Positions 1,089-59,445 of a stretch of 64,000 nucleotides of DNA are shown in pieces. The DNA lies in contig CP154954.1 in the NCBI GenBank assembly GCA_039621445.1, positions 49,827,847-49,891,846 on the forward strand. The letters are read 5' to 3'. Position 1 is the first letter of the stretch. Each line of letters starts with the position of its first letter. Source of the DNA: Euglena gracilis. Taxonomy: Eukaryota. Position numbers and translations under genes: made by a program. A model generated the notes under the pieces. The model was not told the DNA's origin, did not search any database, and saw nothing but the letters and a program-made list of their open reading frames with translations.

Positions 1089-1373
1089 CAGGCTTCTTTT
1101 TAAGACCCCCGGGGGGGGGGGGAGGGGGGGTCCCCCCCACCCACCCAGGGTGGCGCGGGCCACCGCCGGGGGGGGGGGGTCTGGGGACCACCCCAACATC
1201 GGGCCCGTTAAAGGCAATTTTCAAAAAATTTCGGCGCTTCGCGCCGAAAAGGTATACCCAGCGCCTCCGGCGCGGGACCCCCCCCCCCCCCCGGGGGGGG
1301 GGGGACCGGCCCCCACCCCCCCACCCACCCCCCCCGGGGGGGGGGGGGGTCAGGTGACTTAAAAAGAAGCCTG
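1089..1373. mobile_element. Non-autonomous TIR element (hAT-like MITE), 8-bp TSD
   Basis: TIR CAGGCTTCTTTTTAAG/CTTAAAAAGAAGCCTG. Perfect TSD ACACCCAT. Empty homologous site near 56797-56810. Confidence 0.9.
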
Positions 1374-5487: not shown

Positions 5488-5992
5488 CAGGGGGGGGGAA
5501 TAATTGATATCGGAGGCCTTCGGAAAAATTGCGGAAAAATTGCGGAAATTGCGGAAAAATTGCGGAAAAATTGATATCGGGTATACACATTTCTGCTTGG
5601 GGGGACTTAGAAAATTTTCAATTGTGAGGTTCAGAACACCGCAACACCCACGTCGATGCAGGCGAGCACAAATCAAAACGCTTGATGATCTTTGCACAGG
5701 TGGGACGCACCCAATCCTGTGACCAGTGGTGCACCTGTGAGAAAAATTGGTAAACTGGGGGGGGGACAACAAAGCACAATAGCACACCTGTTGATCCATT
5801 TGAAGAATGGCTTGAACTCATTGCATCTTCCATCTTTGGTGGTGGAGAAAAAATTCTTCAAAAAAATGGTGGAAAATTGCGGAAAAATTGCGGAAATTGC
5901 GGAAAAATTGCGGAAAATTGCGGAAAATTGCGGAAATTGCGGAAAATTGTGGAAATTGCGGAAAAATTGCGGATATCAATCCCCCCCCCCTG
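5488..5992. mobile_element. CAGGG-terminal MITE with 7-bp TSD
   Basis: Ends CAGGGGGGGGG..ATTGATATC / GATATCAATCCCCCCCCCCTG. TSD GTAGAGG. (GCGGAAAATT)n subterminal repeats. Confidence 0.8.
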
Positions 5993-8010: not shown

Positions 8011-10617
8011 TCAGCACGCCACGAGGTTGAGGTCGCGGAAGATGTCGATCAGCACGCTGTCCAGGCGGCCCCGGGGGATTTCTCACCGGCGGGAGGGGGG
8101 CGGGGGGTCCGGGGGATTAATTTGGCTGTTAATCTGTTGTTTGTTCATCTGTCTCGTCTGTCTTCTTTCAATTTCCCTTAGATTTGTATGAGTTTGGCTT
8201 TTGAACCTGGATTGTTGTTCTGACAAATGCTGTCTCACCTGGGCACATACAATTTTTAAGCCCCCCAGTCACTAACAGTCACTAACAGGGCACAAAATGA
8301 GGGTAGTGGAGCGGAGGTCCTGACCACCCTCCTCTCTGGGGGGGGGGGGTCGGACCGCCGCCTCCTCCCTGTCAGGAAAAATACATAAAAACCCACTTCA
8401 GGTGTAAAAGAAACCCCACACAACGGGGTTTACATATTTCTTCCACACAATCCGTGGAAAAAAGAACATATAAGTTCACAAGAAGACAAATTCTTCGGGG
8501 AATCCTGGAATCTTTGGCCTGGAGGGGGTGATGGTCGGAAAAAAGAACATATAAGTTCACAAGAAGACAAATTCTTCGGGGAATCCTGGAATCTTTGGCC
8601 TGGAGGGGGTGATGGTCGCACCCCCCCTTCTCCAGGGCGTGGGAGCGGCGTTCCAACCTCACCTAAACAAAACCAACGTGCACGTTTATAGATTCGCGCA
8701 CTCCCCCTTGCGAGGCATAAAATGCTGGCTTGAAGAGCGCCCACCTCCGTGGGCCATTTGGTTTGGTCTGGCCTTGGTATGGGCCTTCAGGAATGCCCCG
8801 AGCCCAACGCCGACAAGAACCGCCGGGCCGAGGCGTACGGCTGCGCCTCCGCCGCCTCCTCCGCCACCGCCTTCCCGGCCGCCGCCTTGCCGGAGGGCTG
8901 CCGCCAGTGCGGCTCTGCAGGCGAGGAGGCATCCTGGGCCCCGAGGGCAGGCACGGTCGGGCCAGGGGTTTTTAAAGACTGGGCGGGGGGGGGAGGGGGG
9001 GTCCCGGGGGACCCAACCCACTTTCCCCCCGAAAATGGCCAGAAATCACAAAAAATGCTAAAAATAGCACCATTTTCAAAAATTTTCGGTGCCTTTGGCA
9101 CCGAAAAATATAAAAAATATATCCCTCCCTCCCATCCCTTCGGGGGGGCCAAGACTAAAATAAACCCCTGGGTCGGGCGCACGTTTCTCGTGTTGACCCG
9201 CTGCCTCGGGAGGGAGCCCCAGAGAATTCAGCCGGCGTGCAGAGGGATACCTCGTGTTTTCAAACATGGGTTCCCGCTTTTCTTAGAACACCGGAATGTT
9301 CGGAGTCGTCTGTCAGGAAATTTGGCGGTCATTCACACGGTCGATAAAAATCCGTGGGAGGTGCTAATTTGAGGGGGGGGGGTTCCCTTGAGGAAATAAT
9401 GAATTGCTTAACGGATGTCCCTTTGCTCGCCCCCCCCCCATGTCAATGCCTGTCCCCCGACTGGTGGTTGTTCGATATAAGGTTCTCACCAAAAAGAGGT
9501 TGCTAGTTTTCAGACTGGCCAAATTTCTGAAAAGCTCAAGCTCAACCGGGGGGGGTCTTGGATATTGGGGGTTGTTGGAGTTGGGGGGGGGGAGCATTTT
9601 TCAACGACAGGGGGGGGGGTTCCCCACCCACCCAGAGGATACACCCCAGGGAGGGGAGGGCAGTCTGGGGGGCCCACTTTGCTTCGCGCCGAAAATAGGC
9701 CGAAAACAGGGGGAAAACCCCGCCTCTGGCGGGGTGCCCACTCAGTCCGACCCCTTCCCCCTCCCGGGGGTGGGGGGGGAGGGGATCTGGGGACCCATCC
9801 ACCAATCTAATTAAAAACCGATTAAAAAAACTCCCTGGGGGCATGTGAACCCCCATAAGAGATAACCCTGTACAGGAACCTGTTTGGTTATCGACTCTGA
9901 GGGGGAGGTTGTAAGTGGGGGGGTCAGGGCAGGTGGATGGGCTTGTGGGGGTCAGGAACAGGGCGGTTGTGTCGTGTCAAGCGGTCATGACAAGCGAAAA
10001 GAACTCCCTTACCTGTATGAAAATTTGAAGAAAGGTGTTGCTTTTTGTGGCGGAGAAGCTTGTTTCACATTTTTGGCCTTTGGCCAAGGAAATAATCTCG
10101 GGGAGGTTCTGGGATTCCCATTCACCCCGCCCACCCAAGGTCAAATCCGTCTCGGCCATGGCTCAGCTCCCAGGGAACCGATGGAGCAGCACTGCCTGCC
10201 AGCACTCCTCCTCCTCCTCCTCCTCCGCCAGCGTCTTCTGCATGCACTCCGCGAACTTTTCAAACTCCGCCGTGAGGTCTGCGGCCGCCGCCGGGGCGGT
10301 GGGTTGGGGGCCGGGCGTGGACTCCGCCGGCACCGCTGTGGGGTGCGCCGGGGGGACGGGCAGCGCGTGGGAGGGGGCCGGAGTGGAGGGGATGGCGATG
10401 ACCTGCCCAGTCGGGTGGGCTACCACGATGGGGCCCATGGGCCCTCCTGTGGCCCATTTCGCACAAGATGGCCCTCGCACTTCACACCGTTCCCTGTGCC
10501 AAAATGGAAATGACGGAAACAATCCTCCCCAACCCGGTCAACAAATGCCCAACCAACCGACACACACATCGCTGGAATTTCATGGCACACCAACAACCAT
10601 TCACAATTGTCCTCTCG

Positions 10618-11968: not shown

Positions 11969-13402
11969 CAGACCGCCATTTAGTGCGTATCACAACGTAT
12001 CTGTGATACATTAATTTTATTTTGGTGATACATAGGTGATACATTAAAAATTTTTGGTGATACATATGTGATACATTAAAAAAAAATTGGTGATACATTC
12101 GTGATACACAAATTTTCCTTGGTGAAACATATAATAAAAGTTGTGAAGCACAAATTTGTAAGATGAAAATTTTTCAGAAAAACGTAAGATGGCGCTCACC
12201 CGAGCTTGAGGAACTCAGGTTCCCATGGTGCTCCCGCCTCACTTCCGTGGCGCTGACCTGTCTGCCAAGACAGGTCCCTGCCATCTTTTTTTTTCATTTT
12301 TTGAGGCATGCACGGGGGGTCCCCGGCTGCCATATTTTTTTGTCTTTTTTGTCAACAACTTCTCAGCCGCTATTTTTCAATTTATTGGACGGGATAAGAG
12401 AAGAATGGAACGAAATCTTACACTGTGCTGGATGACGCTGCCAACTGACCCTTCACAGACGCCTCACCCCCGTGGAATTGCCATGCGTGCCATGTCTGCA
12501 ATTGTGATGAATCCAAAAGTTTTCTTGCTGTCAAATCCCTCCTTCCAGAGGGAACCTTCAAAACGTGCAAGACAGGATTCCGAGACAACAATTCCTCTAA
12601 CCATTGACAAGAATAACCCCCCCCCAAATAATACCCCCCGGGGTATATTTTTTTCGCCCGAAGTCCCGAGGAGGGGGTATTATTTGGGGAGGGGTATTGT
12701 TTCCCAAAAATTTTCGAAATTTTTCGAAGTCCTGTAAGACCCAAAATAGCACCCAAAAACCCCCTTTGGGGTCATTTTTTGTACTTTTGTACTTTTTCAT
12801 ATAATTCAGCATTTTTTTGGAGGCCAGATGATCGAATTTTTTCGTAATTTGTTGTCAGGATTGTTATTTTTACCCAACTTTTCAGGTCAAAATCCGGGTC
12901 GTCTGCCCGAGATTTGGGGGGGGGGGTATTAATTCGGTGGCCGAAGTCGGACCCCAAGGGAGGGGGTATTACATAGGGGGGAGGGTAGGGGGGCCAAGTT
13001 TGCATGTAAGGACGAGGGGGGCCAAGCGCTCGGGGGGGGGGAAGTAATCACTATAACCCCGACTACAGATTGGAAAAAGTTTTGCTGGGAGAATTAGCGA
13101 GTCGTAACTGAAACACATTGCCGAAAGCATTAGCACAAGAAAAATGTTCCATTTGTCTGCAGAGAGGCAAAGAAACAAGGATGAAAAGTGGAACAGAAAG
13201 GGGAAAAATTTTTGATGTGAAAATGGAAATTTTTATGCAAAAAATTGGTGATACATATGTGATACATTAAAATTTTATTGGTGATATATATGTGATACAT
13301 TAAAAAATTTTTGGTGATACATATGTGATACATTAATTTTTTGGCTGTGATACACGTGATACGTAAAAAAATTTTTGGTGATTCATACTAAATGGAGGTC
13401 TG
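11969..13402. mobile_element. hAT-like non-autonomous element with subterminal GTGATACA repeats and nested inserts
   Basis: TIR CAGACCGCCATTTAGT/ACTAAATGGAGGTCTG. Perfect TSD CTTTGGAC. GTGATACAT repeats at 12003-12110 and 13247-13365. Confidence 0.85.
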
Positions 13403-14470: not shown

Positions 14471-16294
14471 GGTATGACACCCTCTCCCACCCTCTCCACC
14501 AATCCCCGGAAGTAGATTAGGGTCCCTTCCGACTTGAAAAAACAATCCCTGCCTCCAACCTCTGACCAGGGGGTGGTCATACGCACCCTCTAACCTGCAA
14601 CATTTGACCAGGGGTACGGGGGTGGCCGGCGAGTCAGGGGGGGGGGGCTGCAAGCTTCTCCGGGGGGGGGGGGGGGGCGTTGACCACACATTCACTTTTT
14701 GTGAATGGCAAAAACCTTGAGCAGTCCCGAAGGATATGGGAACACTTTGGGGGGGGGGTCGCCCCCCCCCCCTCGAGTGCAAGGCCCCCGCAGAAAAATT
14801 TCGGTTTTGTGGATGGGCAAAGGGCCCGATGCCAAGATGAAATTGTTGGGAAATCCCTGAGTTTTCTTTGAAAACAAAACAAAATGCTTTGGATTTTTTT
14901 GGATTTTTTTTATTTTTTTTTAAAATAGAAAACACCAAAACATCAAAAAAAATGCGCAATATGCTGAAAACTGAGGGGAAACGACGTATTTTGTTCATTT
15001 TCTGGTGCGCAGTGCCGGAAGAAATTTTGTCACTATTTTGGCACCTGCCAAGGGGGTGGGGGTCCGGACACCCCCTTCCACCTTACCCCCAAGGGGTAAG
15101 GTGGAAGGGGAGGGGTCGGGACCCAACTACCTCAATAGTGATGGGGCTTCCCGTTTATCCCTGACAGTCCCCCTTATCTTACACACAGGAAAATGTGTAC
15201 AAAAATCACCTGGGCAGGCAGGGGTGTAAAGGGGAATGACCAAAAAAGCAACAACAACGACAAAGGGATCTCCTTCCATTTTTGGGGGGGTTCACTGGTA
15301 AACGTGAAAGGCATTCGGATGAACAAATCAACCATCATCAAATCCACATTCGGGTTTGCTGAAATATCCCAAATTTCAAAAAAAAATACGAATAATATCT
15401 CAAAAATTCATCATAAAAAATGCCATCTGTGCAGATCGTTTCTGGTGCTTTCCACGCAGCATTGGCTGCATCCCATGGAACCCGAAAATGATGCAGTTGA
15501 TGGATCAAAAGTGCACCACGCTGAAACAAATAAACCACGTTGTCAATGACTGTTTCTGTGAGACTTCACTGAAAAACTGGAAACTTTTACACAATGAAAC
15601 CACCCGTTTCTCCCAGCCAACCCTGAGGGTGGGGGGGGACGGGAAATGGTACGCTGTTCTCTAATGCCAAAGAGATGAGAGCCCCAGGAAGTTGGCTTCA
15701 CATAGAGGGGAGGCTAACCCCGAGTAAGGCCAATTTGGAGTACAGACGGGGTGCCAACTTCTTGGGTGAGTAAGGCTCCCTGAGGCTTTATACCCCCCCC
15801 CATCGACGGTCACCAACCTCCTGTCACTCTGACCGGGGGAGGGTCATTATTAGACAACGTTTTTTAAAACCCAATTGGAAAATGATCATTGGACAACAAG
15901 AAAATTGTCCAACCAAATCATGGAGAGACCTCTGAAAAAATGTCCAGGGATCACTCGAAATCAGGGAAGGAAAAGAGGGGTTCCCGTACGTTGGGGGAGT
16001 GGTCGGACCAGAAAGAAATGAATAAGCAATGACGCAGCGGAATCACTGCACAGTTCGCGAGAATCAGTCTTCTTTGGCCAAACAGAAATGTCAATTACGG
16101 GAAGCCAGGAGCTCCAGGCAGACAGCAGGAATACTTGGAGTGACATCGGGGCTGATATAGCTCCCAAGGAGACACGAGTCAGGCAGGAGACCACCAGTCA
16201 GCAAGGGCGATTCGCTGCCATTGCAGATGCCCTCAGCGACGTGCTCACTGACATCAAACAGAAGAGGATCGGAGAGGAGTTGTGCAGGCACAAC

Positions 16295-16710
16295 CAGGCT
16301 GGGGGGGGGGGGGTACTGGCTAGCAAATCGGCTAGACACTGGAAAAAGTGGACTAGCTAGACCCCCCTCCCCCCCCCCGGTGGGGGGGGGGTCCGGGGGT
16401 CCCCCGGACTGGAAAAAATTTTTCCTCCGGCGCGCAAAATGAGGTTTTTAACAGGTTTTTGGCTGGTTTTGTTCCAAAAATTGCCAAAAATGGCCAAAAA
16501 CGGGCATTTTGGGCCATTTTGGGGGTCCCCAAAAAAATTTCCGGCGCTTTGCGCCGGTCACTGGAAAAAAATTTCCACTAGCTAGCCCTGCTAGCAGACC
16601 CCCCCTGGGGGGGGAGGTCTGATGGAAAACCCACTAGCCAAATTTGGACTAGCTGCAGTCCAGCCCCCCCCCCCGGGGGGGGGCACTGCAATCCCTGAAG
16701 CAAAAGCCTG
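16295..16710. mobile_element. CAGGCTTTT-family MITE (same family as intron 48355-48776)
   Basis: Right end AAGCAAAAGCCTG. TSD GGCACAAC/GGCACATC. Shared interior motif gctagacactggaaaa. Confidence 0.8.
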
Positions 16711-16785: not shown

Positions 16786-18883
<2,098 letters not shown>

Positions 18884-23617: not shown

Positions 23618-26600
23618 TCAGCAGGCGACCAGGTTCAGGTCCCAGAAGATGTCCACCAAAGCACTGTCCAGCCCCAGCACCGAGTGCAGGAACTGCTGGG
23701 CCACGCTGACCGTCGGCGCCTCGCGCGACTGCTCCTCCGCCGTGTCCTCCCCGGCCGCAGCCACCTCACTGGGGGGCTGCCACCAGCACTGCTGTCCCGG
23801 GAGGGCAGAGGGGCGGACCCTGGTTGTCTTGCCCTTGCGGAGTGGTGTCTATATTACCCAAAAAATCACTCACCTGGTTGCCCCCCCACTTGTCCTTGAC
23901 ACACCACAGTACGATAAAAATGTGGTTGAAACGGAGAAGAGGCTAGGTAAAGCTCAGGTAACCAGCCTCCAGGGAGGCTCCCCTCCAGGGAGCCTCCAGG
24001 GAGGCTCAGGTAACCAGCATCCGGAGCCTCCCCGGAGGGAGGCTCAGGGAGGCTCCAGGGAGGTTCAGGTAACCAGTTTTGTACACACGCCGACAGTGGG
24101 ACAGGATGCAATGCCTGGTGCGTACTTCCCACATTTGTTTGTTCTGCTGCTCACTGATGGGATGACCCTTTCGCGTGGTAAGGCAACGGTGAACAGCGGC
24201 ATCCCCCCCTACCTATCGTGTATCTGCTCGTACCTGTACAGGTACACGCAGGTCCTGGGGGGGGGTAGTACCTGTTTAGACAGACGGGAGTCAGGGCGCA
24301 GAGGGCGCACACGAGGGAAATCGAGCGCAGCGCTGCCCGCCAGCCGCGGGGCTCCTCGGCCCGCTGGCCCAGCGTCCTCCGCATACACTCCGCGAACCGC
24401 TCGAACTCCGCCGCCAGGTCCGCCTCCGCCGCCGCGGGGCCCATGGGGGTCGGCGGCGCCGCGACGGCCGGGGCGGGGGCGACGGCCGGCCCTGCCTGGT
24501 CGGCCGCGGGGGACACCGTGGCGGGGCACGGCCCCGACCGCCGTGCCCAGACCACGGAGGCTGCTGCCATACTGCATGGTCACCCGCGGCACCCAACAGC
24601 AGAGGGGAGGAGGGGAGGAGAAGGGCCCTGGGCGGGGTGCAGCTTGTTGCACTTGGCGCCGAACTTGCACTGGCCGGACATGGCCCGACCATTGCTTCAC
24701 GGCCCCGGGGAGACCACACTTTCTCTTTAAAAATTAAATTAATGTTTCTGATCACCCTGATAACCTGGGAGGAGTCCCAGTTTTTCTTTGGCGACTTTGG
24801 CAGGGGTCATTTTCAGGGGAGCCTCCAAGAGGGAACAGAACCGAAAAATTCAAGTAGTCACCCCTCAAAATAAGCAATGGTATGGTCATGGCCCACACCT
24901 CGCACATCTCCCGCCCGGCCTGCGCCTCCACCGCCTCCGACAGCTGCTGGTACGCCGTGAGGTCCGGGTGGACGAAGCGGCACTGGGTCCACTGCGGCCG
25001 GCGGAGAAGACTCTGGAAGAAATCAATTGAAATTACGGCACCACTTGGGCAGGAAGCAGAGTGGAACACAACCCCGAAAAACGGAAGCACAAAAGACCAG
25101 AATTCAATTTATGGGTTTCAAGGTATGCAATTCTCTGAATATAGATATTGGAATTGTTCACCTCTTCCAGATTAAAATTGTTGTTAAACATCATTTGCCG
25201 TGCATTTTTGTACAATCATTCGCATTTCTGAACTTTTTTTTATATTTCTGAGCAAAATTTTTAAAAAAAAAACGCAGCACAAAAAAGGGCAGTCAAATCG
25301 TGCACAACGGCACGAATGTCTTTGTACTTCATTTTCGAACCCTCAAGGGAGTGACAATTATTTGTGAAGTGTGCACCCTTTGGGCACTGCGCATTTAAAT
25401 GGAGGTGTGCTACCCCCCCCCTGGTTGTCGTTGACGCAGCGTGTCGGTGACACACACACACACATACACACACACACACACGCACGCACGCACGCACACG
25501 CACGCACGCACGCACGCACACACACCGTGGACGGCACAATTGGCCTCCACAACTGTACCTTTGAACCACTCACATTGCACCAAATCACCAAATTCATAGG
25601 GGAAAACATTCAAATGAAGATCCGACACAATTTTGAAATGTCTTGGTTGAATTTCCTTAGAAACCGAGGCCAACGCAAAGAAAAAACTTATGTTCCAGAA
25701 AAGTGCTGTTGACACGCGGGGGTCAACAACATGCTGTGTCAAGCACAACGGGGGGGGGGTACAACAAACCATGTGGTTTTTTTTGACTTTCATTGCACAA
25801 AACAGCAAATGAATTCAATAAAAATTCAATAAATACAATAGAATTTTGAGGTACTTTGCGGAATTTTGTAAGATGCTGTGTGAGATTTGCAGAATTATGT
25901 AGAATCTTGCCTGATCCAAAAGAAAAATCATTTTATGAACAACGGGGCAAATTGCATGGGACAAAATCGACTTTATTTGACATTGTTGTCCACTGCAAGC
26001 CTTTTTTTTTTGGCTCATTGTCAGCAACTTTGGGCTGTTTCTGCGCATTTTTGTCCATTTTGGTCAAATGTCAATCATTTTCCACCATCATTGGGTAATT
26101 ATCGGCCATTTCGGCAATTTTGGGGGAATCGGGGGATTTTGGGGGAAAATTCATTCAATCGTTCATTCAACAGGTGGGCCCTTGGGGCCCACCTTGTTGC
26201 AGACATTTCAGGAACTCACCAGTTTGCACTTCGCCCTAATCATCCTTTGCCAGCACCTATCATCCTCATTTGACTGCAGCATGCCAGCCTTGTTGCCCAA
26301 CACCAGCCACCTGTTCTCCAAATACACGGACTTTTTCATCAGGAATAAAACAGGTGAGATGAATCTGCTAATGACAGATGGGAGGGTGGTGATAGAGATG
26401 AAAGGGCAAGGAAGAGATTTGGTGTCACCCTGTCGCCTCTTGTCCATGCTTTGATGCTTTCCTCCCCCTTTGTGGGAATTAATCTTTGATGGACAAGCCA
26501 AACACGGTACATGGGAGAAAATTTCATTCATAATTGCTGGTGGGTTTTTCGTGCCCATTTGCCCCCCCCACACCAACCACACATGCCGGGACGGCGGCCG

Positions 26601-31368: not shown

Positions 31369-32359
31369 CTGGGGATTTCTTAAGGACCCCGGAGGGGGGT
31401 CCAGCCTCTGGCTGGGAAAAAGGCTGCTGGCAGGAAACGAGCTGCTGGCTGCCCCCCCCCCCCCACCCCGTGGGGACAGGGAGGGGGGAGGGGGTGGTCC
31501 GGGGCTGGAGGGGTCAATGAAAAGCAAAATTGTATTCAAAAATTTTGCCTTCTCGACATTTCGATGGATGGAGCTTGATCAAGGCTGGATTGGGACTAAA
31601 AGAACAGCCAGCTGGGCAGCCCGGTTGCCCAAGCCTCTGGCCGGGCTGGACCCAACTCTATTTCACTCGACCCCCTGGGGGGGGGGGCTCCCAGCCAGGC
31701 TTTTGCTTAAAGACCCCTGGGGGGGTACTGGCTACCTACCCCCCCCCCCGGGAAACTGTCACCTGACAGGTTGGCCGGTACCGGGGACCCTGACAACTTC
31801 CTATACTGACAGGTTGGCCGGTACCGGGGACCCTGACAGTTTCCCGGGCGGGACCCTGACAGGTTCTCGGGCATGACAGTTTCCTGGGGGGGGGGGGTAG
31901 CCAATCGGCTAGACACTGGAAAAAGTGTACTAGCCAGACCCTCCCCCCCCCGGGGGGGGGGGGGGGGTCCGCGGGTCCCCCCAACTGGAAAAAAATTTTC
32001 CTCCGGCGCTGCGCGCCGTTTTTGGTTTTTTGGTTTTTGCCATTTTTGAGGGTCCCAAAAAAAATTTCCGGCGGCCACTGGAAAAAAATTTCCACTAGCT
32101 AGCCCTGCTAACAGACCCCCCCCCTGGGGGGGGTCTGCTAGAAATCCCACTAGCCAAATTTGGACCAGCCCCAGCCCCCCCCCCCCCCCCCCGGGGGGAC
32201 TGCAATTCCTTGAGCAAAAGCCTGCTCCCAGCCCCCCCTCCCCCCCTGGGGAGGCTCCCAGCCCCGATTTGGGCTGCTGGCTGGATTTGAGCTGCTGGCT
32301 TGCTGGACCCCTCCCCCCCCCCCCGAGATGGGGTCCCCTCCGGCTTAAGAAATCCCCTG
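31369..32359. mobile_element. Outer TIR element enclosing 31696-32224
   Basis: Inverted repeat GGGGATTTCTTAAG/CTTAAGAAATCCCC. TSD not clear. Confidence 0.65.
31696..32224. mobile_element. CAGGCTTTT-family MITE with perfect 8-bp TSD
   Basis: TIR CAGGCTTTTGCTTAA/TTGAGCAAAAGCCTG. TSD CTCCCAGC on both sides. Contains TA-TSD element 31735-31897. Confidence 0.9.
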
Positions 32360-35428: not shown

Positions 35429-36379
35429 CAGGGATCCTCACACGTCCGTGCTGGCCGAGGCCAAAATGTATCCGTGATTTTCCGTGATTTTCCCTTCCGG
35501 CGCTTTGCGCCGAAAATTTTGGGCAATTTTGACAAATTTTTGTCCAAAAAAGTGTCAAAAATGGCACTTTGGCCAAATTTTTGGCAAAATTTTGGGCAAA
35601 ATTTTTCGTCCCGGCGCTTCATGCCGGGACCAAAAAATTGGTCAAACCTCCGAAAAGGTGTCCTCTTACCCGGGGGGTGGTCATTGGACATAGGGGGGTC
35701 GTTGGACATAGGGGGGGGGGGTAATATATATAATATAGTCCTGGAGATCCCCCAGTTCCTATTCACACCTGCATATGAAAATAAAAAACATACAGGAGGG
35801 GAAAAAACAACCTTTTGTCCTTGAATTTTTTTCTTGATTGCCCCCTAAATGTGTTGCCAAAACCCTGTCAGCAGACCGATGTAGCGATTGCCCTTCCACA
35901 TGCAGCCTGGGCAGGAAGGTGGAAGGTCATAAAACCCAGACACCCTCAACTTGTGTGTATTTTTGGAGAACGCCTCTGATGCTTTCGAGGTTTAATTTTG
36001 TGACTGGGAGACCGGAATGGAGGAAAACGGCCACAAAATCATCTGTGATTGTCTGGGTGAGGTTTTGCTTCTTCACCGACTCCCAAAAATCCAACTGCTT
36101 CAGTGGGGTGTCCTGGCTAGGAAGAAAAATTACAAAAAAAAATGAATTGGACGACATTGTCTGTTTGGAAAGGCAGAGAATAAGCAAAGCATCCCATCAA
36201 AATGTGTCTGCGCCAACAAAACACATTCAAAAAAAAGACCAAAATTTTTTTCCGAACCCCCTCCTCATCCGTGAATTTCCGTGAATTTCCGTGATTTCCG
36301 TGAAAATGGCCTTCTGCCCATTCCGTGATCCTCCGTGAATTTCCGTGAATTTCCTTTTCAGGACATGTGAGGATCCCTG
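35429..36379. mobile_element. CAGGGATCCTCACA-family element with 7-bp TSD
   Basis: TSD CACATTG. ~600 bp of interior nearly matches 13797-14470. Carries a partial poly-G-ended MITE at ~35490-35721. Confidence 0.85.
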
Positions 36380-37135: not shown

Positions 37136-40100
37136 TCAGCAGGACACGAGGTTCAGGTCCCGGAAGATGTCGAGCAGCACGCTGTCCCTGCGATGCCGTT
37201 GCTCTGGGGGGGAAATGGCGGTTTTTGCATCAAACAAAACCAGCACTCCCCCTCCACCCCCCGACGGGGGTGAGGAGTTAGCAATGGTATGGCCCAGCCC
37301 CAAGACGGACTGTACGAAGCGCCGCGCCACAGAGTATGCGGGGGCGGAGTCCTCCGCCAACTCCTTCGCATCCTTGCCAGAAGGCTGTCGCCAGCGCCCC
37401 CAGCAGGTTTCTTTTATCTTGTTATATCGAACCCACGACCCATTTTTTTTTGGGTTTGAATCTACGCTCCAAATAGGCTCCTGCACCAAAAATAAAGCGG
37501 GTGCCTACTGGGTCTGACCCCACCCCCCAGGCAAGGCCTACCCCACACCCAGGTCACCAATTTTTTTAAAAAAATATTCTCGGGCCCTGTGTGGCCATCA
37601 GGGGCATTGCATATTTCTGGCAGATGCAAAAAGCGATTTGACAGGCAGCGCTGCACGCCAGCAGAACTCCTCCTCCTCCTCTGGTAGGATCTTCCGCATG
37701 CTCTCGGCGAACTTCTCAAACTCTGCTACTTGCAGGCACCCGAGGTGAGGCAGCTGCAATTCCTGGTTGTCGGCAGGACGCATTTATTTTTCCAGCAGCC
37801 TCAGCAGAAACTTCCAGGTTGTAAACTTGCTCCAAGCCACACGTTTTCGGCAGTTTTTTGTTGAAAAAAAAACGTTGTTTTTTTTTTGGTGGTTCCCAGC
37901 CGGACCAAGATGAAGAAATTCATTCCAGTCGTCTTCTGGCTGGAACCCCTCAGGGCAAGCGGAAAAACCCAATTGAGTCCCAGCAACCCCTGCCCTTGGG
38001 GTTTTCCTTGCCTTGGGCGTCTGGCCGTCAGGTCTGGGGCCGCCGACACAACGGCCGGCCCAGCGAGGGGCGGGTTCCCCGGCACATCCTCCTCCCCGGC
38101 GCCCTCGGAGTCCTCGGCGGCGGCCGGGGCCTCCGCCGCGGCGGTGCCGGCGTCGGTGGCGGGGGCCGCCGCCGCCGGAAGGGCGATGATCTGCCCGGGG
38201 CCGGCGGGGTTGGTCACCATGACGGGGCTGCAGGGCCCCGGCCATGCACCGGCCGCGGAGCGGGCAGGCTGGGGGGATGGGGGGGGGGGGCAATTTTCTT
38301 TGTGCGTTCATACGCCGTGTGCCTGTCTGTTTGGGGATTGTTGGACTTTCTGGAATGTCTTTGGCGAGATGGGTGGTGGTCAAGAGAGGCGGGGAATCGG
38401 ACCTTTTTCCCCGCCATCGACCTGTTCTCGCCGAAAGATGCCAAATTATTTCCCCTCTTCTTGTGCTTTTTGAATTGAATTTGCTGGACAGCGGAGTTTT
38501 TATTTGTATCTGCTTGGAGACCGCACCCAGACTCTCCCGTGTTCGAGCCAATCTGACCCAGTTCAAACCTCGTGACCGCCGGGCCTTTTTTAGGAAACCT
38601 GAAACACTCTCGTCAGAAAGAAGCGGGGAGAAAAGCGATTCAATAAATGAGGAAAAACGGTGGCTCTGGGCGGGGTGCAGCTTGTTGCACTTGGCGCCGA
38701 ACTTGCACTGGCCGGTCATGGCCCACACCTCGCACATCTCCCGCCCGGCCTGCGCCTCCACCGCCTCCGACAGCTGCTGGTACGCCGTGAGGTCTGGGTG
38801 GACAAAGCGGCACTGGGACCACTGCGGCCGGCCGACCAACCCACTACCTGAAAATTCCAAGCAATTTGGAGTAAACCGGCAGGGATACTTTGGTAAAACG
38901 CTGCATCCAGCGGGGTATTGATCATCTAATTACGTGACAAATTACAGAGGGAATTTTCTCCAGAGGCTGTGATGAGGTGGGGGAAATCACGATGTTGCAA
39001 ACACAATCATGATGTTGCAAACACAGACACACGCACGCCCGCAGCCCCCCCCCCAACACAACCCACACCCACTCACCCACCCGCCCGCCCACCAGGCACC
39101 TATGGTCACTTCCCATTTTGGTGCTCTGGTCGGCCCTGGTCGGCCCTGGTCGGCCCTGGTCGGCCCTGGTCGGCCCTGGTCGGCCCTGGTCGGCAAATAG
39201 TCGGCCATAGGTGGGGGTATCGTCACAGAAAAAAAGATTGTGAAAAATGACCCAAAATTACCAAAAGGGCGTAAAATGGCCAAAATGCCATAAAATATGC
39301 TCACAATGACCCAAATTAGCCCAATATTTGCCAAATCAGTGACAAATGGCCCCCAAGTTAGCAAAAACTGATCCGTAATGGCCAAAATGGGTGTAAAACT
39401 GGAGATTTGTAGGGAAATTATCCAAAAATGGGTTGAGTTCTTCAAAATATACAATATACTGGCACAAAATGCTCAAAAATGGTCAAATTGGACCAAAAAG
39501 AGACCAAAAAAAATGGGCAAAATAACAAAAAACGTCGAAAATGGCTTTAAATGGTCAAAAATGGCCCCAGAGCAGGACAAAATGGCCCAAAATTACAAGA
39601 AGTGCGCAAAAAGTGGCAAAAAATGGTCAAAATAGGTCGAAATTGGTGAATTATGGTGACAAATGGGCCAAAAGGGGACAAAAGCGACCTAAAATGGCCA
39701 AAAGCGGCCAAAAGTAGCCAAAAGTGACAACATGAGCCAGACGAGCCAGAAAAATCTCAAAATCTGGGATAAAATTCCTCATTCTCACTGAAAAAATGAC
39801 ATCAATCAGAAAAAAAGTTGCACGGTCGGCTGCGGTCGGCTGCGGTCGGCTGCGGTCGGCTGCGGTCGGCAACCCACCTATGACAGTCCTGAAACCCGCG
39901 GTAACCCGCGGTCGATGCTGCCGGGCCAGCATCGTCCTGCATCGCCCAGCACCGCCCAGCATCATCAAAGGAGCTTGGTTCAGAGGGAAAGCTGCCTAAG
40001 TCCTTCATCCATTCCCCTTCGGTCGGCCAATCACATGCAAGTCGGCCCTGGTCGGCCCTGGTCGGCCCTGGTCGGCCCTGGTCGGCCCTGGTCGGAACCC

Positions 40101-40530
40101 CCACCTACGGGGGTCCTGAAACTCATAGTCGGCCCTGGTCGGCCCTGGTCGGCCCTGGTCGGCCCTGGTCGGCCCTGGTCGGCCATAGGTGCCTGCCGCC
40201 CACCCACCCACACCCACACACACACGCGTACACGTACACATGCACGAAGACACGCATGCAAGCATGACAAAGCACAGAAAGACGCAGAAATTCTCACCAC
40301 TTTGTGCAAAGATGAAAATTGTCTTGGACCCGATGAAAAGGGTTCTATGCCAGGGAGCGGGGCATGGAACTGGCTGTTGTCGTGTGTCGAAGAACTGGAT
40401 GGCCGACCACAGGGCGCTCTCGCGTACACTTCCCCTTCAGGTAGTCGAGACAGACGTTCAGCCCCGCGTCTGCCTTGGCCTTGCGGCCCCTCTTGTGTGC
40501 GGCAGGCAACGTGTTGTTTGCGGAGGCCAT
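37136..40530 (-). CDS. Tandem CCCH zinc-finger protein, paralog 4 (6 coding exons)
   Basis: Exons ~40530-40404, ~38832-38665, ~38240-38027, 37727-~37642, ~37405-37295 and 37186-37136 ([16 protein letters not shown]). Collinear homology with the other copies. Confidence 0.85.
37187..37294 (-). other. 108-nt nonconventional intron (or in-frame insertion) in paralog 4
   Basis: Separates VLGL from DSVL, which are contiguous in paralogs 3 and 5. Sense starts GGC-CATACCATTGCT and pairs imperfectly with AGCAACGGCATC near the 3' end in the +n/-(n+2) register. Confidence 0.7.
37728..38026 (-). other. Nonconventional intron of paralog 4 at the same codon position as 48355-48776
   Basis: Sense CTGAC|GGC-CAGACGCCCAAGG ... 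CCTCGGGTGCCTG-CAAGT|AGCA, with CAG at +4, CTG at -8 and an imperfect stem. Removal gives DLTAEF as in paralog 2. Confidence 0.8.
39093..40195. mobile_element. CAGGCACCTA-family TIR element nested in intron 1 of paralog 4
   Basis: TIR CAGGCACCTATGG/CCATAGGTGCCTG. Perfect TSD CCGCCCAC. Subterminal 10-mer arrays (GGTCGGCCCT)n and (GGTCGGCTGC)n. Confidence 0.9.
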
Positions 40531-46680: not shown

Positions 46681-47110
46681 TCAGCAGGCGACCAGGTTCA
46701 GGTCCCGGAAGATGTCGATCAGCGCGCTGTCCACCCCCAGCACCGATTGCAGGAACCGCCGCGCCGCGGAGTACTGGGGCGCCGCTGTCTCCTCTGAAAG
46801 CTCCTTCCCGGCCAACGCCTTGCCAGAGGGCTGGCCCCAGCGTGGCCCCCTCGGCATCATTTCGTGCCATTTTTCAGGAACCTTTGAAAACCACTGAAAA
46901 TTTTAAATAAAAAAATTGGCCAAGACGCCTTGCAATATCGGAAAATGCCTTCAACAAACATTGGGAAATTGTTCTGGTTGAATTTTTCAATTGAGCAAAC
47001 TAAAACCGCAAAATCTCGGCAAAAGCGAGCCAACTCAAAGGAGAAGAACAATTTCTGGCATCCCTGGAATATACACCCAAACTCAGAAAAAATTCGGTTT
47101 CGGCTGTTTA

Positions 47111-47142
<32 letters not shown>

Positions 47143-47256
47143 CATATATATATACATATACATATATATACATATATATATATTATATCTATACATATAT
47201 ATATATATATATATAGATATAGATATATATATATAGATATATCTATAGATATATAC

Positions 47257-47293
<37 letters not shown>

Positions 47294-50200
47294 TTCGATC
47301 CCTTTGATTCCCAGAACAACATTGAACCTCTTGTAAAAAAAAATCAATTCATTAAAATTAAAAAACCAACTTTGATTGCCGATTAACATTTTTAAAGAGC
47401 GAAACGCAAACTGTGGGAACGTATATTATTATCTGTGAGCTTGTTGACACTGCTGCCCCTCTTTTGACCATTTTTGGCCTCCTTAACCCACTTTTGACCA
47501 CTTTTCTCTGCTTTTGGCCATTTTTACCCACTTCTGGCCACTTTCAGGCCACTTTAAACGTCCTTTTGTTACTTTTGATATCAAGTAAAAAGTGGCCTAA
47601 AAATGGCCTAAAAGTGGCAAAACATGGTTAAAATGGCCAGAAGTTCCAAAAGCATGCAAAAATAACAAAAATAATGCCCCAAAATGGCCCAAAATGACCC
47701 TGCTTTTGGCCGATTTGGGTCACTTTAGCAGCTTTTGTTCACTTTTGGCAACAAACTGGCGCAAAATGCTCAAAATGGTCAAATTGACCAAAAAAAAATG
47801 GGCAAAGATAACAAAAGCAAAGGTCGAAAATGGCTTTAAATGGTTAAAAATGGCCCTAAATGGCCCAAGAGCAGGACAAAATGGCCCAAAATTACAAGAA
47901 GTGGGCAAAAAGTGACCAAAAATGGTCAAAATGGGTCAAAATGGGTGAATTATGGAGCAAATGGGCCAAAAGGGGACAAAAGCGACCAAAAATGGCCAAA
48001 AATGGCCAAAAGTGGCCAAAAGTGGCAACATGAGCCAGATGAGCCAGAAAAATCTCAACATCTGGTATAAAAATGAGCCTAATTCCTCATTCTCACTGAA
48101 AAATTGGCATCAATTAGAAAAAAAAGTTGCGTGGTCGGCTGCGGTCGGCTGCGGTCGGCTGCGGTCGGCTGCGGTCGGCACCCCGCCTATGACAGTCCTG
48201 AAACCCGCGGTCGGCCGCGGTCGGCTGCGGTCGGCTGCGGTCGGCTGCGGTCGGCATAGGTGCCTGCTGCTGGGGCAGCGCTGCATGCCAGCAGTACTCC
48301 TCCTCCTCCAAGAGCGTCTTCTGCATGCACTTTGCGAACTGCTCAAACTCCGCTGCAAGCAGGCTTTTGCTTAAGGACCCTGGAGGGTCCACAAGGGGGC
48401 CACTTTGCTAGACACTGGGAAACAGCTGCCAGCTATTTGACCCCCCCACCCCACGGGGGATTTGGGGGTCTGGAACTGGGAGAAAAAATTCCTCTGGCGC
48501 TGTGTGCTGAGGTGGAAATGAGGTATTCAATTTTTTTGGCTGATTTTGCTCCAAAAAAAAATGCCAAAAAATGGCCAAAAATGAACATTTTGGCAAGTTA
48601 TGGGGTCCAAAACTTTTCGGCGCTTTGCTGGTCACTGGAAAATATTTCCACTGGATAGACCTGCAAACGAAACACACCCTTCCATTCGATTTCCACCAGC
48701 CAAATTTGGGCTTGCTTCAGTCCAACCCCCCCCCCCCACCGGGAGGAACGGCAAAACCTGAAGGAAAAGCCTGGCTGCGAGGTCCGGGGCCGCCGTGACA
48801 ACGGTCATCGGGACGATGGCGAGCTCACTGGGCGGACCGTCTGCCGGGCTTTCCGCCTCTGCCGGTTGGGGGGTGGAGGGGACAGCGATGGTTTGCCCCG
48901 CGGGGTGGTCGACCATGACGGGCCCCACGGCCCCTCCGACATTGCAGTGTGAGCCCAGCATCCCTAAGCAGAACGGCGGAGAGACACCGCGACCACACAC
49001 AGAAACTGTGCATCGATTGTGGCAGAGAAACCCGCCCTGCTTCGCGTTGCGACGGCGGAGGAGGGGCCCTGGGCGGGGTGCAGCTTGTTGCACTTGGCGC
49101 CGAACTTGCACTGGCCAGTCATGGCCCACACCTCGCAGATCTCCCGCCCGGCCTGCGCCTCCACCGCCTCCGACAGCTGCTGGTACGCCGTGAGGTCCGG
49201 GTGGACGAAGCGGCACTGGGACCACTGCGGCCGGCAAATCCATTCTGCAATGTCAGGTCAAACTGAGGACCAGTGTCACGTTTCAAAACCAGTGATTAAG
49301 AAATGTCATGGACACCCTGATGGGATACCCGTGGGTTGGGGAAGAATGCTGAAAGAAATGGAAATCAAAAGAAACCTGAAAACATATGATGGAAATCTCT
49401 TAAACCTAGGGAGAAAAATTAGAAATCCTCGAGCCACATTGATGAAGGTTTTCTGAAGTGGGAAGGATCAAATGCAAAAAAATTGTTGGGAAAAATTTTG
49501 GACAAAATCTTCAAAAGACTCAAATTGAGCAATTCATAAGAAATTTGGAAATTTCCATCTTAGAATTTCGAAAAAATCGAAAACAATTTTTATGAAAGAG
49601 GTGAGAAAAAGGAAACGTGGAAATTTTTGAAAAAGGCAAATCAGAAGTAAGCAGCTGCATATGAAGAATTTGTACAGCATTCTTCAAAATATCAAACAAA
49701 TCTGTTCCTGAAACATAAAATGTAAAAAAAGAGGTCCTAGAAAAATTGTGACACATCAACGAAAAATGCAAATTGCATGTCAATTTATTCAAGAGTTCCC
49801 CGCATGTGCATTTTTCTTCTGGAGAGGAATTAATTTGAATATTCTCCCCTCCTGCACAGAATTTTTTTCATTCTGCAACATCACATAATACACAACGTAC
49901 AAGTTTTACATTGTCCAAATGCATAATTTGGACAATCATGAGCATTTTCCCAACCAGGACCCCCTCTCCCCGGCCCCCCGGGACCCCCCTGGTTGGGAAA
50001 AAAGTGTGGGCTGGAAAAAGGAGCTGGCTGGAAAAAAAATGCTGGCAGGAAAAAAAGTGCTGGCTGGACCCCGGGGGGGGGGTCAGGGGTTCGAATCCGG
50101 CTGGGAGCTGGACCCGGCAGGCACTCAAAAAATGTCCCAAAAAGCCCAAATCCAAATGGGGTTGGCATTTTTCAGCTGAAAATTGGAGGAGAAGAACCAG

Positions 50201-51834
50201 AAACCACCCCAAAATGCCATTTTTTTACCATTTTTGACCCATTTTTGAAAAGCAAACTTCGTACCGAAAGTTTCTTAATCTAACCTGACTTTGCCAAGCT
50301 GGACCCAACTTCATTTCAGCAGACCCCCCCCCCCGGGGGGTCCACAACCTCGTGAGAGGTGCTGGCTGGAAGAAAGGTGCTGGGTGGGGTCCCCTCCAGC
50401 TGTAGAAAACCCCTGTTTCCCACCCCCCAAAAACATCAAAGCAACACAAGTCAACAATTTTTTTTGCAAAAAAATGAAAATTACCCGCCCCCCCCTTGTC
50501 GTACGACCGGGTTCCAGCAACCTGTGACCGGGGGGTGGTCGTAAATGCGGGGGCAGTCGTAGGTAAGGTGGTGTTAAAATTTTCGCAACCTGCAACCTGT
50601 GACCGGGGGGGGGGGGTCATAACACCCCCATGACCTGCAACCTGTGACCAGGGGGTGTTCGTATATGAGGGGTGGTCGTACGACTAGGGGGGGGGTAAGC
50701 AAAAAAAAGCAAATTTACAAGAATTTGGTTTTAGGTCCCACCAGCATTTGCACAGGGGGAGATATGCGCTGAAAAAGCTTCCCAAATATGCGCTGAACTA
50801 TACCAGAACATACGCTTTTTCCAAAATCCAGCCATATTTGAAAACATTCGGGTGACATGGCATGTTTTGACCATAACCGGTCATAATCAGCTGTTTTCGG
50901 ACCATTTACAACCATTTGGAAATCATTTGGGGCCATTTTGACCAATTTTAACTTTTTTTGGCCATTTTTTTAGCCATTTTCGGATGACTTGCTATGGAAA
51001 ATGGCACAAATGAAGAATACAACAGCTGGTTTGCCTAAAAAAAAAAAGGTCAACAACAGTGGCAAAATGACCAACAGTGGGCCAAAATATCTCAAAAATG
51101 GCCAGTTTGCCTCAGAATGGCCAAAAATAGGCCAAAATTGACAAAAAGGCGGCCAAAAATGGCCCCAAAATAAAAAGAAATGGTTGGAAGAAGTTCAAAA
51201 CAGCTCCAATAAGATGCTGAAAACATGCGAAACGTCGGTAGGAACAGAAATGTGCAGCGGGAAAATCCTGAAAAACCTCGGAATATGCGCTAAATATGCA
51301 CAGAATATGCAAAATATACAATTTTTTTTGGCCTAAAAATGAAGAATATGCGCAAAATATGCTGAATTTGCGTAAAATATGCGCAAGGCATACCCCCCTG
51401 AGTTGTCCCCCCCCCCCGTTTACCAATGTTTACAACAAAAAATTGAGCAGCCAAACGTTATCAACTTTCCAACCTGTTGAACTGATAAAGTTGTTAAAAG
51501 TCTATGTTTAAAGACACCTTTCACCTTTAGGAGGTCGAAGAATTTTAGGAATTTGAACCTCAAAACACGACATTCACAAAACATCGACAATAAAAAAAAT
51601 TATGGGCAAATCTTTGACACTTTAGGCCATTTTAGCTCCAGGTGCTTGGCAATTGGTGCTGGCAGCAAAAGCTGCTCACCTCCAACCCCAAACCCTCTTT
51701 GTGCAGCTGACCACAGGGCGCTCTCTCGTGCACTTTCCCTTCAGGTAGTCGAGGCAGACGTTCAGCCCTGCGTCCGCCTTGGCCTTGCGGCCCCTCCGGT
51801 GCGGGGCAGCGGGGGCGTGGGTCGGGGCTGCCAT
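46681..51834 (-). CDS. Tandem CCCH zinc-finger protein, paralog 5 (5 coding exons)
   Basis: Exons ~51834-51708, ~49235-49062, ~48935-48777, 48354-~48270 and ~46850-46681 (..[26 protein letters not shown]). Confidence 0.85.
47108..47292. repeat. (AT)n-rich microsatellite within the last intron of paralog 5
   Basis: Direct reading. Confidence 0.9.
47640..48265. mobile_element. Partial relative of 39093-40195, ending next to exon 4 of paralog 5
   Basis: 47760-48210 aligns by eye with 39460-39900. Right end CATAGGTGCCTG. Confidence 0.65.
48355..48776 (-). other. Nonconventional (non GT-AG) intron of paralog 5 = TIR element 48360-48773 plus one 8-bp TSD
   Basis: Sense ends CTCGC|AGC-CAGGCTTTTCCTTCAGG ... 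CCTTAAGCAAAAGCCTG-CTTGC|AGCG, with CAG at +4 and CTG at -8. TSD CTCGCAGC/CTTGCAGC. Removal gives DLAAEF, contiguous as in paralog 3. Confidence 0.85.
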
Positions 51835-54201
51835 CGGATGGGGAAGGGGACGGGAAAGGGTCGATGCTGTGGATGGAGGGGCAGCCCCGGCTGGGGACCC
51901 ACGCCCCACGGTGCCGACTCTCGGGGGTAACCAGAGGGAGGCGGTCCCTACCAGTTCCTGCCGTCGCGTGAACAGCACAGCAAATGAATAAAATGATTCT
52001 GAGGCACGTGCTCCCCCCCCCCCGAGGGAATGGCCACGGCTGAGGGAAAATTGGGCTTCAAGGACCTCAAAGAAGCGCCAGGATCTCAAATGGAGCTTTC
52101 CAAGGAGGGAAAGGGTGAAATGAAACAAAACACAAAAAAAGCAAAAGGCCGACCATCAAATGCGGAATGTGTTATGTCCTCCGCAATTCATACCGAGACC
52201 ACACAACTTGGCTCGCCATGAAACCACACGAAAAAAGAATTATGTGTGTATTATAATTTCATCTCAAGGAACACATGAAATGGATCTGGGGGGGGATATT
52301 CCAGTACACTTTTAAGGCGAAAGATCCCTCTCCTTGACCCAGACAGCAAACCCCAGGGAACAATGCACACCTTCATTCATAAACCATAAATTTTGTGACC
52401 CCCACCCAAATTTAAACAACCTCCTGATTGGCTGCTATGCAGGAATTTGGATCAAAATGATATCGGAACATCAAAGAAGCGATATTCCAAATATATGTAA
52501 CTCCGGAATAAAAGCAACTCCTGGGGATTAATTTCGGAGAAACAAATGTGAGCAACAGGTTGCACATATTTGTCGGGGAATTTTGTGCAATTTCAAATTG
52601 GAAACTGCAAACAGACACAGGCTGTGGTGCCCATGCAAACAAACGGTCAGAGGCGGGCACCGAGACGACCAGGGCGCTGATCGATGGAAGAACGGCCATC
52701 CAGTCTGACAATGAACACCTGCACTACGATCGGAGGACGAGCCAGCCAAATGTACAAGCGGGCTGTGGGCGCTGCGCGTTTCCGCACCGCCCACACTCCA
52801 CTGGGACGGCGCCCGCTGTGGTGGTCGCCCTGCCGCGGGGGGAAAGCAGGCAGGGCGAGGGGGGTCCCCCAAGGTGTTGGTACAGTTGGCTGACCCGCTC
52901 TGGACGGCGTGGGGGAAAAGACAAATGGTGGGAAAGAAAAAAGGCACCACCTGGGGGGCGTACAGAAAACCAAAAAGTTGGTGGTATCGCAGTCAGCCGA
53001 CTCGCTCCTACAGAGGGTTGGGGCTGAAACAGGTGGCCAGACCGCTGGCTATGGCGGGTGGGGGAAAGAGCGCCCAATGGTGGCCCCGCCACCGCCGGAG
53101 AGCTCCGCGCCACTCGGCAAAGCCAAGGGTGGGAGGGCGGTCGGGCCGGCAGGGAGGTCCTTAACGGGAAAAAATCCCCCGTCACATTCAATGAAAATTT
53201 TATAAGAAAAATGGACAAAAAAGGCCATGTTTTGGCAAAAGTGGGTCGACATTGGGGGGGGGGGGAAGTGATTTCTGGCATGTTTGGACCATCGCCCATC
53301 AACCCAAAACGTCAAAAAAATGTGTTTCTGGACATTTTGATTTTTGACCCCATTTGATCCCCGAATCGGCCGTTCGGTCCTTATATAGAAGGTACACAAC
53401 AACATTCCGTCCCTTATGGACTGCCCTCTGGTCGGGGAAGGCAACGCAGCCCAGGCAAGGGACGGAGAGGGCTGCGAAGAGAAAGGGGGCCGGGTCCTGG
53501 CTCCAAAGGCAGGGACCAGCGGTCAACGTAAGCGGCCGAACTTGCACTTAAAATGACTGGTGCAGGTTCGACTGTGATCTAAAGCCTTAATGAGAGTTCG
53601 GCTCGGTCGGTCAAACCTCCAACGGCACCCCACCACCCCGCTATGTTCGGTGTTGTAGAAATAATTATCTTAGGGGGGAGGGAGAAAATGTCAAGGCTGA
53701 AGAGAAATGTTTTCTTTTTGCACCTAAAATTCTGCAGAAGGGTGACCATTTCTCATTGGATATAAAATGAAAAACGATCGAAGAATTAGACAAATTTTAG
53801 CAAGCTTTCTCAAATCACCCAGTGGATAGCAAGACAATTTTGTAGTCCAGAAATCGGCAGGAAAATTCTTGAACACCCGTTGAGAATTTCCATTCCGATT
53901 GAACAACAAATTTTTATCATTGCTGCCGGCATCTGGACGGTGTGGACGGTGCCCCCCCCCCCTTGGGTGCTTGGTTCAGGCAACAATTGAAGGTCAGGCC
54001 AGGGGGCCAATGTATATCGGCTTGTAACCTTTTTTTAAAAAAATGGCTTTCGTTGTCCAGTTCAACCATGCACTTCTTGGGACTTTGAAATTTGGGCCAA
54101 AAGACGCTGCCAGAGCACTGTGCTTAAAGAAATGGAAAAAAAATCAAATAAACAGGCTTCAGGGAAAAAAATTCGGCCCTTCGCAAAGAGGCATTTGGGT
54201 A

Positions 54202-59015: not shown

Positions 59016-59445
59016 CAGGGGGGGGGAAATGCGCTCGCCCGGCCTCGGAAAAAATGCGCAAAAAAATGCGCAAAAAATACGCAAAATCCGAGAAAAAATG
59101 CGCAAAAATCGCGAAAATGCAAAAATTACCCAAAAACATGCAAAAATGGCACCAAATTTGAAGAAATTATGTAGAATAATGAGGAAAATATAAGTTTCAA
59201 AAAAAGTCGAAAATTTCAAATTTTTGCAAAAAAAATTGCAAAAATGGTCAAAAAATGCGAAAATTTTGGAAAATCACGAAAAAATGTGCCAAAAAGCAAA
59301 AAAAAATGCACTGAAAAAAATGAAAAAAATGCGCAAAAAATGCGAAAAAATGCGCAAAAATGCGCATTTTTGGAAAATTTGAAAAAATGCGCAAAAAAAT
59401 GCGCAAAAATGCAAAAAAAATGCGAAACGCATTTCCCCCCCCCTG
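59016..59445. mobile_element. CAGGG-terminal MITE with 7-bp TSD
   Basis: Close copy of 3032-3437. TSD CTGCTCA on both sides. Confidence 0.85.

Follow-up and report, generated by a model that had tools for sequence, protein, structure and literature searches.

Among the closest described counterparts of the element reported here are the nonconventional introns of euglenids, which make up approximately 70% of the introns in Euglena agilis. In 2014, an origin similar to that of a MITE, or miniature inverted-repeat transposable element, was proposed for these introns, at a time when there were 'no transposable elements identified in euglenid genomes' (PMC3935182). In 2016, a strain-specific and recently gained nonconventional intron in the E. 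agilis gapC gene was described with 'eight nucleotide direct repeats' at its junctions, which the authors ascribed to double-strand-break repair (PMC4770533). Here, we describe a 414-bp MITE that interrupts a CCCH zinc-finger gene, within one of its coding exons, in a 64,000-nucleotide stretch of the Euglena gracilis genome (contig CP154954.1, positions 49,827,847 to 49,891,846; hereafter, the window). The element is very probably removed from the RNA as a nonconventional intron, together with one copy of its 8-bp target duplication.

A 2024 review described inverted repeats at intron positions +4 to +6 and −8 to −6 along with 'TSD-like' (target site duplication-like) repeats, for which it gave neither a length nor a superfamily; in the part of its text available to us, the terms 'hAT', '8 bp', and '8 nt' never occur (PMC11282704). 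The border code was then defined by knock-in mutagenesis as 5'-N3CDG-/-CH'GN5-6 followed by an R (Nomura et al. 2025, PMC12501133). The donor spacer consists of three bases, with neither a 1-bp insertion nor a 1-bp deletion tolerated, and the acceptor spacer consists of five bases, with six tolerated. In the available passages of the same paper, the origin of the introns is still termed unclear and the spacers random, and the introns that direct repeats made 'slidable', which came to 84.4% of all introns and 69.1% of the nonconventional ones, were set aside. The MITE hypothesis, the 8-nt repeat, the 'TSD-like' repeats, and the N3/N5 code have each been published already. Among the open full texts that we searched, supplements aside, we found no paper linking them, no statement that N3 plus N5 equals an 8-bp target duplication, and no transposon family with a member shown to be a nonconventional intron.

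The insert has the anatomy of a nonautonomous DNA transposon. Its terminal inverted repeats (TIRs) match at 15 of 17 positions (two mismatches) and give it CAG...CTG ends. The plus strand across the insert reads ...ccGCTGCAAG, then CAGGCTTTTGCTTAAGG...CCTGAAGGAAAAGCCTG, then GCTGCGAGgtcc. The flanking 8-mers, GCTGCAAG and GCTGCGAG, agree at seven of eight positions, the lone difference being the sixth base on the plus strand. With up to three mismatches allowed, the TIR 17-mer occurred six times in the window, compared with 0.28 expected, and none of 100 shuffles reached six. The TIRs, a duplication of fixed length, copies at unrelated loci, and an empty target site together identify the insert as a MITE. 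DNA contigs of at least 95% identity reached a depth of up to 9,626 over positions 48482-48622, versus approximately 25 to 50 in unique bins; this figure is not equivalent to copy number, and it hints at numerous close copies of the MITE elsewhere.

Three further members of the family lie at 16295, 27776, and 31696. All four copies share full-length homology (BLAST and four-way alignment), with a mean column identity of 62%, and the target duplications of the three copies that retain both ends match at 8/8, 7/8, and 7/8 positions. The TIR-bounded coding-region insert, its three relatives, and the perfect duplication at 31696 had all been noted in a preliminary description made from the sequence alone, and each of them proved real. 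That description called the three relatives free, which here means that no known exon surrounds them; they may lie in unannotated genes. The sequence directly upstream of the copy at 16295 (16200-16294) is coding-like on the plus strand (...QGRFAAIADALSDVLTDIKQKRIGEELCRHN), and this copy may also be in a gene.

The gene that carries the insert is encoded on the minus strand and is one of five tandem copies spaced 10 to 14 kb apart; the product of its exon 2 matches PF00642 with 31.8 bits (cutoff, 20.5). In two of the other copies, paralogs A and B, the target site is empty. Read in the sense direction, the site is gac-CTCACGGC-ggagtt in A and gac-CTGGCGGC-ggagtt in B, and in the focal copy it is gac-CTCGCAGC-(414 bp)-CTTGCAGC-ggagtt. 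The exon of paralog A runs straight through the site (...AAADLTAEFEKFAECMQK).

We compared positions 48200-52400 with one DNA run (X1), with the contigs of X15, and with the raw RNA-seq runs X21 and X24, which come from different studies. A joint from 48351 to 48774, which omits 422 nt and hence the 414-nt element plus 8 nt, was found in one X15 contig (depth, 1091.7), in five X21 reads with five start points, and in 10 X24 reads with eight start points. The first mate of the X24 reads was always on the plus strand, which fits minus-strand RNA in a stranded library. Depth in X15 was approximately 3 inside the element versus 1,092 on the adjoining exon, and the contig with the joint had no letters that differed from the focal exon. 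In the DNA run, by contrast, there were no joined contigs at a local depth of approximately 40×, and contigs covered both boundaries between the MITE and the exon. Skips of 155 nt (intron 2) and 2,502 nt (intron 1) were likewise seen only in RNA. Once joined, the exons form a single reading frame that stays open from the start codon across the two zinc fingers, and its continuation aligns with paralog A (...DLTAEFEKFAECMQK); when the element is retained, a stop codon follows 47 codons into it. The joined reads and the restored frame support the earlier suggestion that the insert is spliced out, and they indicate that the host gene is transcribed and is no pseudogene.

Because the two 8-mers differ only at the sixth base on the plus strand, the joint can slide by 0 to 5 positions, and at the differing base the mRNA carries the right-hand version, GCTGCGAG (joint 48351->48774, 'both' = 5). 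The six resulting placements give an identical mRNA, and the choice of the 3/5 placement therefore rests on the published code. Slide 3 is the only placement that reads AGC-CAG...CTG-CTTGC followed by A, with CAG at +4 to +6, CTG at −8 to −6, and a purine as the first exon base. GT-AG, GC-AG, or AT-AC borders were absent from all six placements of the MITE intron and from all 13 permitted placements over the three introns of the gene. As the preliminary description had proposed, the borders are not GT-AG, and with no canonical border among the permitted placements, we ruled out conventional spliceosomal splicing.

At the focal locus, transposon anatomy thus coincides with empty paralogous sites, a 422-nt skip confined to RNA, a restored reading frame, and a fit to the splicing code. 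We propose that a multicopy MITE with CAG...CTG ends and an 8-bp duplication inserted itself into a coding exon in one of the tandem CCCH paralogs. The transcript would then be processed by the Euglena-type nonconventional intron pathway, and for this reason the gene would keep working. The paired transposon ends, which pair with each other in the minimum free energy fold (z = −2.17 over the whole 456 nt), would form a stem that may guide the cut. The cuts in the RNA would lie 3 nt before CAG and 5 nt after CTG, presumably there rather than elsewhere in the 0-to-5 range. Since three and five add up to the target duplication's length, the element would leave with one duplication's worth of bases, and the mRNA would return to its pre-insertion sequence. 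This scarless arithmetic, which the preliminary description had put forward for 48352-48781, lies within the range that the reads permit and matches the published code. Coordinates of the features are given in Table 1.

Table 1. Positions of the focal MITE, its host gene, and related elements within the 64,000-nucleotide window
Feature	Position	Strand	Remarks
MITE, nonautonomous, with terminal inverted repeats	48360..48773		414 bp; sits within coding exon
Left terminal inverted repeat, CAGGCTTTTGCTTAAGG	48360..48376	+	17-mer
Right terminal inverted repeat	48757..48773	-	15/17 identical to left repeat; reverse complement reads CAGGCTTTTCCTTCAGG
Left 8-bp target duplication, GCTGCAAG	48352..48359		
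Right 8-bp target duplication, GCTGCGAG	48774..48781		
Exon 1	51720..51834	-	Likely start codon 51834-51832
Intron 1	49218..51719	-	2502 nt; non-GT-AG; slide 0-1; outside splicing code
Exon 2, CCCH zinc finger	49074..49217	-	
Intron 2	48919..49073	-	155 nt; non-GT-AG; slide 0-4; GCC-CAG...GTG-N6, then G
Coding exon 3, sense-upstream of MITE intron	48777..48918	-	
Nonconventional intron (MITE + 8 nt), placed by the code N3-CAG...CTG-N5, then R	48355..48776	-	422 nt; slide 3 of permitted 0-5
Coding exon 4, sense-downstream of MITE intron	48287..48354	-	Lower end uncertain
Empty site, paralog A	10269..10276	-	Single 8-mer, sense CTCACGGC; exon uninterrupted
Empty site, paralog B	24410..24417	-	Single 8-mer, sense CTGGCGGC
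Paralog C insert, different CAG...CTG element at homologous site	37733..38023	-	291 bp; sense flanks CTGACGGC/CAAGTAGC, 3/8
Zinc-finger exon regions, five paralogs	27-211, 10944-11128, 24620-25007, 38653-38837, 49056-49240		
Family copy	16295..16710		Flanks GGCACAAC/GGCACATC, 7/8; internal deletion in left inverted repeat
Family copy	27776..~28125		Left end with 2 mismatches; right end lost
Family copy	31696..32224		Perfect 8-bp duplication CTCCCAGC; nested foreign element inside
Other CAG...CTG family	1089..1373		Inverted repeat 14/14; perfect 8-bp duplication ACACCCAT
Other CAG...CTG family	11969..13402		Perfect 8-bp duplication CTTTGGAC
Other CAG...CTG family (CAGGCACCTATGG)	39093..40195		Perfect 8-bp duplication CCGCCCAC
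CAGGG-ended elements	5488-5992, 59016-59445, 35429-36379		Exact 7-bp duplications
CAGGG-ended element	13620-14470		6-bp duplication

Several observations weigh against this account or against its extension to other introns. X15 is assigned to RNA only by guess, and the two runs that are RNA on record, X21 and X24, give just 15 junction reads, which leave the cut unfixed among the six placements. The empty sites in A and B are paralogous, not allelic, and in paralog C this very site is taken up by a different element, which is not accounted for by a simple scenario with a single insertion. Transposon ends together with a duplication are found in just one of the three RNA-supported introns of the CCCH gene. 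Intron 2 has paired inverted ends (CAGGGCCCC/CACGGCCCC) and no recognizable duplication. Just within its two ends, intron 1 carries a direct repeat of 8 nt (CTGTGGTC/CAGTGGTC); it has no target duplication and no paired CAG/CTG and lies outside the published code. The idea that nonconventional introns are transposons with 8-bp duplications, removed by a 3+5 cut, is supported at the focal locus and not established as a general rule. In addition, two CAGGG-ended families in the window (TIRs CAGGGGGGGGG... and CAGGGATCCTCACACG) duplicate 6 to 7 bp, so a 3+5 cut could not remove them scarlessly, and it is not the case that CAG-ended elements always duplicate 8 bp.

A scan of the window for CAG...CTG pairs that lie 60 to 3,000 bp apart and whose inverted repeats match at 11/14 positions or better yielded 145 pairs. 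Their flanking 8-mers matched at 8/8 positions in four cases and at 7/8 in one, compared with means of 0.08 and 0.5, respectively, at control offsets of 9 to 20. The four perfect duplications belong to four different families, of which the focal family is one. In a scan without the CAG restriction, the non-microsatellite candidates with flanking repeats of at least 4 bp mostly began with CAG, in a design that is blind to families with 2- to 3-bp duplications.

Several transposon superfamilies make 8-bp target duplications, and among them, hAT elements combine such duplications with short TIRs that start with YARNG and with the target pattern nTnnnnAn. The focal element resembles hAT-type MITEs in its 8-bp duplication, its short TIRs that start with CAG, and its lack of coding capacity. 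It differs from them in that its inverted repeat starts with CAGGC, which agrees with YARNG at four of five positions and departs at the fifth, and in that no transposase partner was found within the window. Specifically, the window contains 149 open reading frames of 130 amino acids or more, and the 10 long ones that were searched against Pfam, some of them inside larger CAG elements, gave no matches. Of the hAT link drawn in the preliminary description, the 8-bp duplication stands and the superfamily assignment is not established. The family could equally well belong to another or an undescribed superfamily that makes 8-bp duplications, as the absence of Pfam matches and the 6- to 7-bp duplications of the sibling CAG-ended families would suggest. 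On the side of hAT, besides the duplication length and the CAG start, positions 2 and 7 of six duplications fit nTnnnnAn in 6 to 7 of 12 cases, which is a weak signal.

A broader reading, to which we give slightly less than even weight, is that the Euglena nonconventional code represents a footprint left by a single group of DNA transposons. CAG and CTG would be the transposon ends, the 'random' N3 and N5 spacers would be halves of the target duplication, and the code would have these parts owing to such transposons. Most nonconventional introns would have begun as insertions, and the excision machinery would have evolved or been recruited for scarless erasure in either orientation. The ends read CAG...CTG on both strands, and an insertion in either orientation would thus present the same signal.

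It is also conceivable, albeit unlikely, that the splicing code is older than and independent of transposons, that CAG...CTG elements with 8-bp duplications merely happen to satisfy it or have been selected for mimicking it, and that most nonconventional introns were not born from transposons. The sum of three and five would then explain why one transposon group is tolerated but not how the intron class arose. Introns 1 and 2, with no duplication or family copies, and the CAGGG-ended families of the same window are consistent with such a history, and so is the N6 spacer that the code allows, which is not scarless for an 8-bp duplication (PMC12501133). However, loss of the duplication is expected in old insertions, and all four CAGGC/CAGAC-type families with intact ends combine CAG/CTG ends with an 8-bp duplication. 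The large 'slidable' share of E. agilis nonconventional introns and the 8-nt repeat of the gapC intron, the sole documented recent gain, likewise speak against this history (PMC12501133; PMC4770533).

The insert in paralog C raises the question of whether the site already held a nonconventional intron, common to both copies, that the MITE replaced or colonized. By homology only, this insert, whose flanking 8-mers have decayed to 3/8 identity, fits the code, keeps the frame, and occupies the same codon position as the focal MITE. In addition, the focal copy and paralog C look like sister copies by sequence comparison, with 89% identity in exon 1 versus 81 to 85% to the other copies and with a common motif, VV[ST]AAPDL. 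Yet the MITE ends directly adjoin the exon with no residue of an older intron, and its two flanks, which agree at 7/8 positions, are homologous to the 8-mer that A and B each carry once. Moreover, no homology between the two inserts was detected; they have just CAG(G/A)C in common and no BLAST similarity. An older intron at the site is for these reasons improbable, and the two inserts possibly represent independent hits on a hot spot or replacement of an older element. Finally, although over 48815-48911 the DNA run shows another haplotype or paralog (15.8 of 43.8 depth) and numerous reads from paralogs of this large gene family fall on the zinc-finger exon, it is very improbable that the joined RNA came from an insert-free allele, a near-identical paralog, or DNA excision in some cells with no RNA splicing, given the lack of joined contigs where both element-flank junctions were covered, the exact match of the RNA contig to the focal exon, and the retention of exactly one 8-mer in the mRNA with no excision footprint.

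Other features of the host gene and its surroundings were recorded. The zinc-finger exon is 95 to 99% identical among the five paralogs, compared with about 80 to 89% for the other exons, a pattern suggestive of gene conversion or of strong constraint. Most of the RNA reads that fall on this exon derive from paralogs outside the window, one example being X21, with 795 loose-end reads at 49075. In X15, a loose end at 48286 resembles 46808-46830 and hints at a fourth intron of approximately 1.45 kb (about 46831-48286). A copy of the CAGGCACCTATG family with 10-mer arrays occupies 47749-48266 and ends approximately 20 nt below the last coding exon seen.

The window contains further repeats. The family copy at 31696 houses a different element (31737-31900) with GGGAAACTGTCA-type inverted ends and poly-C/poly-G arms; its kin are present at 43329, 54200, 60638, and 63596, and its target duplication appears to be very short (TA-like). 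A 1.9-kb element at 16916-18810, with ends CAAGCACCTA...TAGGTGCTTG, is akin to the CAGGCACCTATGG family but starts with CAA, and its target duplication is unreadable because it lies inside a (CA)n microsatellite. An Rfam search of the whole window returned no matches. Metagenome matches to the TIR 17-mer with two degenerate positions (at least 114 stretches) were attributed to chance; among the matches listed, there was no further BLAST similarity to three family copies.

The focal intron shares with euglenid nonconventional introns its non-GT-AG borders, the positions of CAG and CTG, the purine as first exon base, the paired ends, and a slidable direct-repeat junction (Nomura et al. 2025, PMC12501133; Milanowski et al. 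2014, 2016). It differs from those published, as far as the available parts of these sources extend, in being a copy of a transposon family that has copies with 8-bp duplications elsewhere and empty paralogous sites. Comparable systems exist in other lineages. In the introners of Micromonas, Aureococcus, and dinoflagellates, too, insertion of a nonautonomous TIR transposon with a target duplication creates an intron, part of whose border comes from the duplication, and removal is scarless (PMC11282704). Those introners, in the review's available account, depend on the spliceosome, on GT/GC-AG sites in the element or duplication, and on duplications of approximately 3 nt, whereas the borders of the focal intron are noncanonical, and it is the distance to the paired ends that sets them. 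One introner family also gives rise to many introns in many genes, while the focal family is known from a single intronic copy. The introner elements of Amoebophrya are likewise noncanonical and MITE-like, with inverted repeats of 8 to 20 nt and direct repeats that overlap the borders (Farhat et al. 2021, PMC7789003). In contrast to the focal intron, their direct repeats are 3 to 5 nt long, they occur in a different lineage, and the available text describes no fixed N3/N5 rule for them.

Since the 1990s, it has been an open question how euglenid nonconventional introns arose and why their borders follow the N3/N5 rule. What the focal locus adds to the literature that we searched is a transposon family that has members elsewhere, paralogs in which the site is empty, proof from RNA that one member is removed as a nonconventional intron, and the arithmetic of scarless excision. 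With any Euglena assembly and RNA-seq data, the MITE hypothesis becomes testable genome-wide. The prediction is that transposon families with 8-bp duplications can live in exons and that families with 6- to 7-bp duplications cannot. Furthermore, 'slidable' introns could be annotated by anchoring them on transposon ends.

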